64,000 nucleotides of DNA, taken from sequence record NC_100327.1; one strand, 5' to 3'. Position 1 is the stretch's first letter, and each line of letters starts with the position of its first letter. The notes under the pieces are model-generated. The model did not search any database and was not told the origin of the DNA. It saw nothing but the letters and a program-made list of their open reading frames with translations. Origin of the DNA: a phage. Positions 2,104 to 12,196 of the stretch are shown piece after piece. A program made the position numbers and the translations under genes.

Positions 2104-2212
2104 AATGTTTTCCTCTCTTCTGGTTGTTGTGTGGGCACTTTTGCCCCTTCAAGATAAATGTTACCCCACCACCTGGCAGATGTCAACGGTTTTTATAGTT
2201 CTTATATGACAG

Positions 2213-2250
2213 GCAGGCCCGGTGATTGTCTCCCCCGTCGCCAGGTGCCT
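2213..2250 (-). promoter_or_regulatory. Conserved GC-rich promoter-proximal element, copy A (GGCAGGCACC..GACGGGGGAGACAATCACCGGGCCTGCC)
   Basis: Lies just downstream of the promoter at 2262-2289; near-identical copies at 11383-11420 and 11527-11568, each just downstream of a promoter. Confidence 0.5.
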
Positions 2251-2261
2251 GCCGTGTAATA

Positions 2262-2289
2262 AGTATAACAAAAAACAGGACCATTGCAA
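2262..2289 (-). promoter_or_regulatory. sigma70-type promoter (TTGCAA, 16 bp, TATACT)
   Basis: Hexamers read on the minus strand upstream of 1831-2103. Confidence 0.45.
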
Positions 2290-2313
2290 GCCCTGTTTTC
2301 TAGTTAATAAGGA

Positions 2314-2505
2314 TTATATTTTTTCGCCTATGTAGTCCGGTCGGTTTTTCTCTGTCATGCGCTTTAGCAATTCTTGCATGTTACTTATGGCTTGTAGTGT
2401 ATCCTCTTCCAGACTTGAATCAACATAATCAGGATCGTCTATGACCTTTCTATGATTATGATAACGCAGTACCGCCAATACCTTTCTAACTTGTTCAACA
2501 TTCAT
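2314..2505 (-). CDS. hypothetical protein (63 aa)
   Basis: ORF-track ORF tiling the minus-strand early block. Confidence 0.4.
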   Translation of the reverse strand: MNVEQVRKVLAVLRYHNHRKVIDDPDYVDSSLEEDTLQAISNMQELLKRMTEKNRPDYIGEKI

Positions 2506-3030: not shown

Positions 3031-3255
3031 CTATGCTGTACGCTCAACTATAACAACGGTTTGAGGGATCTCACCTTCCACCACTATCAAGGCCTTTTTC
3101 TGCGTGATGGATATCTTTACCCGTTGCAGCGTGGCGGTGAAGTCTTTCATTTCGTCACGTGGTGTTTTAGTGCAATGCCAGATCTCAGGCTTACCTATTT
3201 GCAAGCCGCGTAAAAATTCTGTTTTACCTGTCTTATTCGTGATCATTTGATTCAC
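3031..3255 (-). CDS. hypothetical protein (74 aa)
   Basis: ORF-track ORF tiling the early block. Confidence 0.4.
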   Translation of the reverse strand: MNQMITNKTGKTEFLRGLQIGKPEIWHCTKTPRDEMKDFTATLQRVKISITQKKALIVVEGEIPQTVVIVERTA

Positions 3256-5667: not shown

Positions 5668-5726
5668 TTTGTTTCTCCTTTTGGAACTTTGTCTATGCGG
5701 TGGGGAGTGTCTCCCCGTTGATTGTT

Positions 5727-10962: not shown

Positions 10963-11012
10963 AAATTTATCCTCTTTACTGGTTAGTGCGGTGTTGTTCA
11001 CCTTGTAGGGTA

Positions 11013-11040
11013 ATAATACCATGATTAACCTTGTTGTCAA
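11013..11040 (-). promoter_or_regulatory. sigma70-type promoter (TTGACA, 16 bp, TATTAT)
   Basis: Read on the minus strand upstream of 10765-10962. Confidence 0.5.
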
Positions 11041-11339
11041 CGATTATTTTAAATTATTTTTATGATAGAATCCACCTGCCGCCCCCGCCAGGTTAACCAC
11101 CATTTTTTCGTACTCTTCTTTATGTTCCCGCGCTTCTGTATCATTAATCACTACATTTCCAGGTGAGTAGCATTACCTTTCATTTTTGTACCTCCTCTTC
11201 AATTGTTTACCCTACAGCATGGGCCTACCAGGTTTGCAAGATTTCACCCTCTCCCACCTGGTCAGTTAGGTCCTGCCAGGCTGGCCCCGCCAGGTTGCAG
11301 CGGTTAGCGCATCAGGTTAGAAAAATTTTTTGAAAAGTG

Positions 11340-11368
11340 TTGACAGCGGCCCCGACAGGTGGCACAAT
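11340..11368 (+). promoter_or_regulatory. sigma70-type promoter (TTGACA, 17 bp, CACAAT) reading into the non-coding region
   Basis: Plus-strand hexamers; GC-rich element copy B begins about 15 nt downstream. Confidence 0.4.
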
Positions 11369-11382
11369 ATACCTATCGAAAG

Positions 11383-11420
11383 GACGGCAGGCACCGGTGA
11401 CGGGGGAGACAACCACCAGG
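11383..11420 (+). promoter_or_regulatory. Conserved GC-rich promoter-proximal element, copy B
   Basis: ggacggcaggcaccggtgacgggggagacaaccaccagg; followed at 11440-11455 by GAGAACGGTTATCATT. Confidence 0.5.
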
Positions 11421-11483
11421 GATGAGCGCTGCATAAAATGAGAACGGTTATCATTATCATTTAAAAATTTATGCAAAAAATCC

Positions 11484-11511
11484 TTGCTTTCTTTGTCCTG
11501 TGTGATACTAT
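11484..11511 (+). promoter_or_regulatory. candidate sigma70-type promoter (TTGCTT, 16 bp, TACTAT; overlapping TATAAT)
   Basis: Plus-strand hexamers just upstream of GC-rich element copy C. Confidence 0.35.
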
Positions 11512-11526
11512 AATAACAAGCCGGGG

Positions 11527-11568
11527 CAACAGGGGCCGGGAGACAATCACCGGGCCTGCCCGTTATTC
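11527..11568 (+). promoter_or_regulatory. Conserved GC-rich promoter-proximal element, copy C
   Basis: caacaggggccgggagacaatcaccgggcctgcc; followed at 11576-11591 by GAGAATGATTATCATT. Confidence 0.5.
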
Positions 11569-11707
11569 TGCAAACGAGAATGATTATCATTCAAGATTCT
11601 AAATGAGAACTCCTCGCATTTAATAAATTTAATTAGCACGCTAATTACCCTCCGTAACAATTTACTATAAAATAGTATCCACTAAAATATTCCCATATAG
11701 AAATTTT

Positions 11708-11884
11708 AAAAATCCATTTCTGAAAACGAAAAATCGATTTCGTCCCCAAAAATTTCAGGTTGAGAGCCGGAACGATTTCCAGAAAATCCGATTCAGAAAA
11801 CGAAAAACAGATCGAGTACTGAGAAATTTATCGAGAAAAATTTTCAGAAAATCCAAGCCCTGAAATGAAAAGTAGATCGAGTAC
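11708..11884. repeat. Iteron-like array of three about 40-bp direct repeats (core GAAAATCC..GAAAACGAAAAA..GATCGAGTAC)
   Basis: Units at about 11708-11742, 11781-11819 and 11845-11884; related partial copies near 12059-12100 and 12140-12160. Confidence 0.5.
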
Positions 11885-12196
11885 CTGGAAAGCTGCACCG
11901 CAACTTCAAGATAGCGGTTAGATTGTTACCATAGAAGGTCAAGGGTAAGTGGAGGAAGTTCTAGTAGAGGGAGGTTAGCATGTGTGGGAAATCTATAATG
12001 GTGGCCTGGAATATGGTGCAAACGATAGAATGAGTTATTCAGCTTGTCGCGCCTACTCTGAAAAATCCATTTTAGTTTTCGATCCATTTTCTGATTTTCT
12101 AAGAATTTTAAAATATCCAGCCCGGTGAAATATCAAAAGGAGGAAATCCATTTTAGAAATCCCCCTTATACTTGATATGCCAGGAATTTTCAAGTA

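Follow-up and report, generated by a model that had tools for sequence, protein, structure and literature searches.

A conserved 12-nt core downstream of early sigma70-type promoters in rV5-like phages is probably part of a regulatory signal

The put RNA of phage HK022 is a two-stem structure of about 65 to 70 nt that acts on RNA polymerase without a protein. The ops element used by RfaH is a 12-nt sequence, GGCGGTAGCGTG, that is read on the non-template strand of the leader. Transcript-primed origins are exemplified by oriE, oriF and oriG of T4, phi1.1A/B of T7, and RNA II of ColE1. A lambdoid nut site has a boxB with a stem of about 5 bp and a GNRA-like pentaloop (GAAAA or GACAA), a boxA a few nucleotides to its 5' side, and a phage N protein whose RNA-binding motif is arginine-rich. 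In P22, the boxB elements carry a GACAA pentaloop, as GCGCU-GACAA-AGCGC in nutL and as ACCGC-C-GACAA-C-GCGGU in nutR (both checked in NC_002371), and in nutR a C.C mismatch flanks the loop. The PeSLs of T4-type phages are stem-loops located between or over the -35 and -10 boxes, and they terminate upstream transcription (PMC2839356, PMC4122927). We compare with these systems a short element found past three sigma70-type promoters in a 64,000-nt stretch of phage DNA (NC_100327.1; the whole stretch is called the window here). The 12-nt core of the element is GAGACAAnCACC. Judged by its sequence, the element is probably a real regulatory signal with a putative function, because it is conserved in hundreds of relatives and in one unrelated phage without being a described RNA family.

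More than 120 phage records matched positions 1800-2600 and 11000-12000 of the window by megablast, at 85-99.9% identity. All were rV5-like coliphages of about 136 kb (Vequintavirus; pangalan, EdH4, nomine, and others), and by this similarity the source of the window is an rV5-like Vequintavirus. The first 14 kb form an early region of small minus-strand ORFs, and the minus strand of this region contains numerous sigma70-like promoters and intrinsic terminators. For rV5, 33 promoters have been predicted and the replication origin is undefined; apart from that origin, the rV5 paper mentions just a 'non-coding' box (PMC3606486). A tRNA and tmRNA scan of the window found no match.

The window begins within a 2.6-kb 'non-coding' region of rV5-like phages (104013-106618 in the rV5 record, equal to 12614-15219 in L105). 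Positions 1 to about 650 belong to this region, which extends upstream of the window and is the site where two transcription units converge. It contains the repeats GTAAACAG/GTGAACAG (at least eight times), CAAGGCAACTAT, and GCAAACGAATGGCATGGC (twice), together with palindromic boxes, and it is a further candidate for an origin or packaging locus. About 17 records named as Campylobacter phages (MG0656xx) are about 96% identical to E. coli rV5-like phages, and PQ002170, a Salmonella phage with a Seunavirus-like sequence, is filed under Demerecviridae. These names look like labelling or contamination problems in public records.

An earlier note on this DNA had claimed three copies of a motif with a 35-nt consensus, each near a sigma70-type promoter. 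All three copies were confirmed with slightly moved bounds (Table 1), and each starts 11 to 17 nt past a sigma70-type -10 box. The 35-nt consensus stood at full length in copy A. The other two copies match it in part, copy B in the 5' half (GGCAGGCACC..G.GACGGGGGAGACAA) and copy C in the 3' half (GAGACAATCACCGGGCCTGCC). The 14-mer GGGAGACAAYCACC has exactly three matches in the window, at 2221-2234 on the minus strand and at 11404-11417 and 11538-11551 on the plus strand. When up to two mismatches were allowed, it had 5 matches against 0.75 expected, a number reached in none of 100 shuffles. Likewise, GAGACAANCACC with at most one mismatch had 6 matches against 1.1 expected (0 of 100 shuffles). 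All copies, including those in other phages described below, have the same orientation relative to their promoters, with 23 to 37 nt from the -10 box to the core, and copy B lies 6 to 8 nt farther from its -10 box. Copies B and C, with their promoters and the following box, are tandem duplicates about 135 nt apart, seen as repeat families D1, D6, and D7.

Table 1. Coordinates of the motif copies and neighbouring features in the window, and predicted stems
Feature	Sequence or composition	Position	Strand	Remark
Motif copy A	GGCAGGCACCUGGCGACGGGGGAGACAAUCACCGGGCCUGCC	2212..2253	-	core 2221-2232; fold -24.4 kcal/mol, z -3.0
Promoter P_A	TTGCAA-16-TATACT with TG extension	2262..2289	-	promoter scan
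Terminator-like hairpin	14-bp stem and T run	2269..2302	-	loop contains P_A -35 box
Promoter P2	TTGACA-17-TAACAT	2158..2186	-	separates copy A from next gene (ATG at 2103)
Five copies of a repeat	GCCCCGCCAGGTT	11078..11361	.	upstream of and inside P_B; families D2, D3
Promoter P_B	TTGACA-17-CACAAT	11340..11368	+	promoter scan
Motif copy B		11386..11431	+	core 11406-11417
Palindromic box 1	ATGAGAACGGTTATCAT	11438..11454	.	16/19 matches to Fur-box consensus
Promoter P_C	TTGCTT-16-TACTAT (TGaTACTAT), TG extension	11484..11511	+	by eye; kept in relatives
Motif copy C	GGGGCAACAGGGGCCGGGAGACAAUCACCGGGCCUGCCCG	11523..11562	+	core 11540-11551
Palindromic boxes 2 and 3	ACGAGAATGATTATCAT; ATGAGAACTCCTCGCAT	11574..11619 (11574-11590, 11603-11619)	.	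repeat family D1
AT-rich stretch	28% GC	11600..11750	.	downstream of copy C and boxes; resembles DNA-unwinding element
Stem, PcCB7V	AUAGCGGG/CCCGCUAU
Stem, phiWec186	AUGGCG/CGUCAU
Stem, L085	GCGGGCA/UGCCCGC
Stem, window	GGCAGGC/GCCUGCC
Stem, rV5 after CC-to-GG change	CAGGCACC/GGUGCCUG

Copy A is at the head of the last module of leftward early genes, and the gene that follows it has an RB49 homolog according to the rV5 annotation. The predicted P2 transcript opens with a small hairpin of its own at 2133-2147. The boxes of P_C (TTGCTT at 11484-11489 and TACTAT at 11506-11511) are absent from the list of the promoter scanner, and a TATAAT at 11509-11514 overlaps the -10 region of this promoter. 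A fourth, weak match at 5702-5715 on the minus strand is not a copy of the motif; it is a plain 5' hairpin, GGGGAG-aca-CUCCCC, after another promoter. Small G/C hairpins directly follow other early promoters on the minus strand, at 5690-5725 (GGGGAG-aca-CUCCCC) and at 2133-2147 (GGGGCA-aaag-UGCCC). These cases suggest that early transcripts of this phage commonly carry a hairpin at the 5' end.

Minus-strand genes flank a 700-nt gap (11040-11755) that holds copies B and C, which run in the opposite direction to these genes. The gap contains three repeat families, palindromic boxes, other short repeats, and a stretch with 28% GC. Translational control, one of the roles proposed in the earlier note, is unlikely at B and C, because no plus-strand ORF lies downstream of either copy. 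An antisense ORF overlapping both (11312-11590 on the minus strand, 92 codons) is annotated as a protein in rV5 (ORF198) and in Gotham (F10B_0202). It is interrupted by two in-frame stops in a relative (L057/L115) and is probably not a gene.

The palindromic boxes have the consensus AAATGAGAAnnnTTMTCATT and are found at 11-27, 127-143, and 145-161 in addition to the three positions in Table 1. All matches with at most one mismatch are inside two non-coding regions of the window. The boxes resemble the E. coli Fur box (15 to 16 of 19 positions), with the half-site TGAGAAT and not TGATAAT. Because changes in the half-sites are uncompensated, the boxes resemble DNA sites for a protein more than they do RNA hairpins. 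The box AAATGAGAATGATTCTCATTTG and variants of it also occur in chee24, a T5-like Escherichia phage (L180), at 917-938 and 1273-1400. There they lie in the untranslated Repeat Region 3/injection-stop region of a T5-type left terminal repeat, and paired DnaA boxes adjoin. The palindromes of T5 Repeat Region 3 have no assigned function, and Fur is not mentioned for them (Davison, bioRxiv 10.1101/866236). The occurrence of the box in unrelated coliphage families suggests that it is a putative host protein site.

In other genera (phi92-like phages and Certrevirus), the C-type copy adjoins arrays of three to six boxes that are followed by lineage-specific long repeats, and these loci are non-coding gaps of 700 to 800 nt. 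Because the B/C region is non-coding and repeat-rich and has Fur-box-like palindromes and an AT-rich stretch, it looks like it has the anatomy of a replication origin or of a comparable cis-acting locus. Stephanstirmvirinae have, between a small plus-strand gene and the C-type promoter, one more promoter (TTGACA..TATACT) and, after it, a GC-rich segment that is conserved (..GGGGCUAACAUACCAGGGGCACUGG..GGUCGAUCGCCGG..; 1270-1440 in L104; 481-560 in L165 and L166). This segment may be another non-coding RNA. The small plus-strand gene upstream of these C-type copies has no Pfam family and no homolog in the window.

We found the element throughout a wide set of related phages. A 49-nt query with copy A matched 168 phage records, with two to four places per Vequintavirus genome. 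At 81-85% identity, it also matched Certrevirus (CR3, CR8, CR9, and Pectobacterium and Enterobacter phages), Seunavirus, and a Klebsiella Stephanstirmvirinae phage. The C-type copy with its first box matched 435 records, with Phapecoctavirus, Justusliebigvirus, Henunavirus, and Mydovirus among them; the poorest matches, such as those in T5-like phages, cover the box part alone. The core is near-invariant in Vequintavirinae and Stephanstirmvirinae, and the flanks diverge. It is kept in Vequintavirus, Certrevirus, Seunavirus, Henunavirus, Mydovirus, Phapecoctavirus, Justusliebigvirus, and Klebsiella phages. When 42 distinct copies were aligned, the invariant columns were confined to the core, G-AGAC-AA-n-CAC-C, whose central base varies. 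In the 5' arm, unrelated G-rich sequences replace one another in different lineages, all with a run of at least three G and nearly all with GGGG or longer.

A sigma70-type promoter precedes every copy. The distance from the -10 box to the core, read from the retrieved sequences, is 25 to 31 nt in the rV5 supergroup (mostly 27 to 31), with unrelated sequences in between, and 33 to 37 nt for copy B. Synteny identifies copy A and the CR3-type locus as orthologs (CR3 gp153 corresponds to window 2317-2493, and gp151 to 3034-3255). Certrevirus has two loci about 10 kb apart that face away from each other, like A and C in the window. Past the CR3-type ortholog of copy A come boxes and a non-coding stretch of about 400 nt. 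The CR3-type copies contain ACCGRACCTG repeated 30 bp apart (three helical turns), and KP13-26 has the same G/A change in both repeats.

Rfam 15 gave no match at gathering thresholds over the whole window, and at E <= 10 over 11000-11900 it gave chance-level matches only. Literature searches by sequence strings and by phage group found no relevant description of the element. No copy of the motif was found in E. coli genomes, and the GTDB genomes had only chance matches within apparent coding sequence. At least two of the GTDB matches translate, by eye, to an FTGET.TG stretch, which we take to be an aldehyde-dehydrogenase motif. With no E. coli copy and with GTDB matches that are coding or due to chance, the element appears to be confined to phages. 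Pattern scans of IMG/VR and metagenomes returned mostly chance matches in GC-rich DNA, save for rV5-group contigs and one unrelated contig. Conservation in related genomes had been set beforehand as a test of the element, and it was found in two phage subfamilies and in one unrelated phage. The element appears to be either old or transferred between lineages.

The unrelated contig, IMGVR_UViG_3300027123_000194, is viral and 46.8 kb long, and it has seven distinct copies (for example, CCUGAGAACGGGGGAGACAAUCACCGGGG). Each is 23 to 24 nt after a TATAAT or TATACT box. Most are arranged as terminator, P1, motif, AT-rich spacer, P2, and gene, and the layout at copy A is alike. A second promoter and then a gene follow six of the seven copies. 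The remaining copy would give a short non-coding RNA, because it faces a convergent gene and a terminator. The cassette, found in L043, L069, L145, and L175, consists of a terminator, an extended -10 promoter, the motif, a spacer of GTAAC/GTAAAC repeats, a consensus second promoter, and a transcript starting with ATCAAGAC. We found no GenBank phage relative of this contig, and 10 kb of it, compared with rV5-group DNA, gave no common protein. A comparison of its proteins with PHROGs was uninformative.

The proposal that the element can fold into a GC stem was borne out for copy A, which folds well (z about -3 to -4). The fold was marginal for copy C (z -1.25) and failed for copy B, which has no stem in the window (z 0.0). 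Copy B in the window reads CACCAGGG in place of the CACCGGGG of its relatives, and this G-to-A change removes the predicted stem. Folds more stable than shuffles were found for the PcCB7V/KaOmega type (z -3 to -4), for L085, and, in most relatives, for copy B (z about -2 to -2.5). The CR3-type, phiWec186-type, and unrelated-contig copies had no excess stability over shuffles, and the folding stability of the antisense strand was similar. The predicted stem often begins at the first transcribed nucleotides, and its sequence differs by lineage (Table 1). If transcription is assumed to start 7 nt after the -10 box, a stem starting within 0 to 2 nt of the RNA 5' end is predicted for the A, PcCB7V, and phiWec186 types.

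In copy A of rV5 and Gotham, a register shift preserves an 8-bp stem despite a CC-to-GG change, and in L118 a CUUGG/CCGGG pairing is retained solely via G.U pairs. In the predicted folds, these variants would preserve pairing only if read as RNA. A pairing-probability profile of the 42 distinct copies gave values of 0.02 to 0.18 for ACAA and 0.80 to 0.82 for the CC of CACC, and about three quarters of the copies have ACAA unpaired and CACC paired. However, the covariance analysis across homologous phages that the earlier note had proposed did not support a common stem. RNAalifold found no consensus structure, and in two explicit helix registers 54-55% of cells pair, which is not above slid controls or shuffles. 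Because the folding evidence is mixed, the robust feature is the conserved sequence at a fixed leader position. The models suggest that the core is often, not provably always, shown on a small G/C hairpin.

How does the element compare with the described systems? Against the boxB of P22, the motif reads GGGGA-GACAA-(U/A/C)CACC, and its GACAA matches the P22 pentaloop. Like nut, it occurs in several copies per genome, in sense orientation after early promoters. However, its stem sequence is conserved and does not covary, and it starts at about +10 in a large virulent myovirus, whereas nut is tens of nucleotides downstream. GACAA is present in nearly all copies, with ACAA predicted to be unpaired; the closing base varies without covariation. 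Because the base after GACAA may be U, A, or C, a boxB-like closing pair is not conserved. Searching 64 kb for boxA (CGCUCUUUA-like, at most one mismatch) gave 16 matches against 11 expected, none of them close to a motif copy on the matching strand. The 450 ORFs of the window (about 64 of the approximately 137 kb of the genome) included no credible one for an N-like arginine-rich protein. With no boxA, no N-like protein in 64 kb, and a variable closing position, we do not class the motif as nut; by analogy, it may work like a nut site.

Like put and ops, the element would be a conserved, orientation-dependent leader signal of selected units that is read by polymerase or by a riding factor. 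However, the conserved part is just about 13 to 35 nt, shorter than put. The core reads GAGACAAnCACC and is not an ops element; its sequence resembles neither the ops consensus nor, going by its description, put. As with PeSLs, there are repeated, recombination-prone composites of early promoter and stem-loop between small early genes. The terminator-like hairpin at 2269-2302 and P_A fit a PeSL-type terminator/promoter composite, and CR3, KP13-26, and GE_vB_MG have the same arrangement of terminator hairpin and promoter. In contrast, the motif itself is not a PeSL; it lies past the -10 box, would be transcribed, and has a core that is conserved but not palindromic. At B and C, as at transcript-primed origins, a promoter directs a predicted non-coding RNA into repeats and an AT-rich segment. 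This layout is not found at copy A, and unlike such origins, copy A and the contig copies precede genes.

We tentatively prefer the reading that the element is a transcribed leader signal of selected early sigma70 promoters, read co-transcriptionally like nut, put, or ops. Transcription would begin about 7 nt past the -10 box, so that the first 45 nt or so of the RNA would carry the element, with a G-rich segment on the 5' side of the core and, in most copies of the rV5 group, the C-rich segment CGGnCCUGCC on the 3' side. In most copies, the predicted RNA fold places (G)AGACAA in a loop closed by the G-rich/CACC pairing. The signal would be read before RNA polymerase has moved more than about 50 nt from the promoter, and the reader may be a phage factor, a host factor, or the polymerase itself. 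The signal may take the form of nascent RNA or of the exposed non-template strand, as at nut, put, and ops. The outcome would be an altered downstream behaviour of the transcription complex, such as read-through or persistence. B and C would send non-coding transcription into the iteron-bearing, AT-rich, origin-like region. A co-transcriptional leader signal fits all copies, including copy A and those in the unrelated phage. Several results count against it. No single helix register exceeds the controls, fold stability is near background in several lineages and alike on the antisense strand, and no clear terminator that requires read-through follows B or C. In addition, three promoters have the element against 33 predicted in rV5 (PMC3606486).

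A bolder reading is a doubtful possibility. In this reading, GAGACAAnCACC would be the recognition core of a new class of promoter-proximal phage signal, which would load a factor on E. coli RNA polymerase through a nascent-RNA hairpin or non-template element, or would seed a persistent RNA-DNA hybrid. The rV5/phi92 supergroup and at least one unrelated lineage would share it, and it would link an iteron-bearing replication origin of the rV5 group to early transcription. The motif is absent from Rfam and from the searched literature, and there is a fair chance of mechanistic novelty.

It is rather unlikely that the element is primarily an origin-associated primer or R-loop leader, with a non-coding transcript that enters the iterons and AT-rich unwinding region and activates the origin or primes the leading strand. 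This would suit B and C, which run opposite to the flanking minus-strand genes in their 700-nt gap without a downstream ORF, amid three repeat families, boxes, and the 28%-GC stretch. It would also suit the ancestral state of both loci: C-type copies elsewhere adjoin their three to six boxes and long repeats in 700- to 800-nt gaps, and the CR3-type ortholog of copy A precedes boxes and about 400 nt of non-coding DNA. The run of at least three G in every version of the 5' arm is consistent with such a leader, and the rV5 origin has never been mapped (PMC3606486). However, copy A and six of the seven contig copies precede a second promoter and a gene rather than iterons, seven origins within 47 kb are implausible, and the C-rich 3' half of the RNA disfavours R-loops. 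The origin leader and the co-transcriptional signal are compatible, because a processivity signal could serve the transcriptional activation of an origin. We consider it unlikely that the duplex core, at about +20 to +35, is an operator or roadblock where a phage or host protein blocks promoter escape or elongation. Primary sequence is indeed conserved rather than structure, the distance to the -10 box is near-fixed, and the motif is adjoined by palindromes that are seen as protein-binding. The ACCGRACCTG repeats of the CR3 type, 30 bp apart with a matched G/A change in KP13-26, also point this way. However, the core is asymmetric and has no dyad, its orientation to the promoter is constant, and copy B is 6 to 8 nt farther from its -10 box. 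Moreover, the same core in a phage with no shared proteins in the sampled DNA means that an operator would need a host protein, and E. coli genomes have no copy of the motif.

Conservation of the loop sequence where structure is often lost makes it improbable that the element is a generic 5'-terminal stabiliser hairpin of the ompA type, acting against 5'-end-dependent decay, with a similarity left over from duplication. Such a stabiliser requires structure, and B and C have no translated product to stabilise. It does agree with the strong stems (z -3 to -4) that pair the first transcribed nucleotides in copy A and the PcCB7V type, and with the small 5' hairpins after other promoters of the window (5702-5720; 2133-2147). 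A leader peptide, in which the conserved nucleotides encode ..GGD(K/N)HR(T/A)CP(L/S)F.., is very improbable. A 28-codon AUG frame has an identical length in KP13-26, GE_vB_MG, and P7_Pc, with several differences that are synonymous by eye; its AUG is a few nucleotides from the predicted start, and it stops at a UGA inside the first box. However, in none of A, B, and C of the window does the predicted transcript supply a start codon for this frame, C-type copies are closed by an in-frame stop 2 to 12 codons upstream, no Shine-Dalgarno sequence is present, and chance open frames are common in GC-rich DNA. In Klebsiella, Salmonella, and Pectobacterium phages (1508-1594 in L098 and L099; L100), the CR3-type 28-codon frame, MAPDAGGDKHRTCP(L/S)FR..., runs across the motif. 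CR3 has an additional G that shifts this frame, and an upstream AUG restores it. The 28-codon frame may be a real micro-ORF, or GC-rich sequence may have produced it by chance.

Other candidates were rejected. A CsrA GGA site and a RegB GGAG site were ruled out because the phiWec186-type copies read GCGAGACAA. For seed pairing to a target, the window has no complementary site, and the central base of the core is variable. The likeness of ..GAACCUGCGG.. and AUCACC to the 3' end of 16S rRNA occurs in one copy only and was judged coincidental.

The rV5-like and phi92-like phages are widely used as candidates for therapy and biocontrol. A 12-nt signal that stays intact across genera amid changing surroundings, and that has the same placement relative to promoters in an unrelated phage, marks a specific putative interaction, either with a small phage factor or with the transcription machinery of the host. 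If the element is only a stabiliser or an operator, it would still be of use in annotation, by disposing of spurious ORFs such as rV5 ORF198. If it is a loading site or an R-loop seed, it would join nut, put, ops, and Q-binding sites as a new cis element and would indicate where the origin of this group of phages lies.
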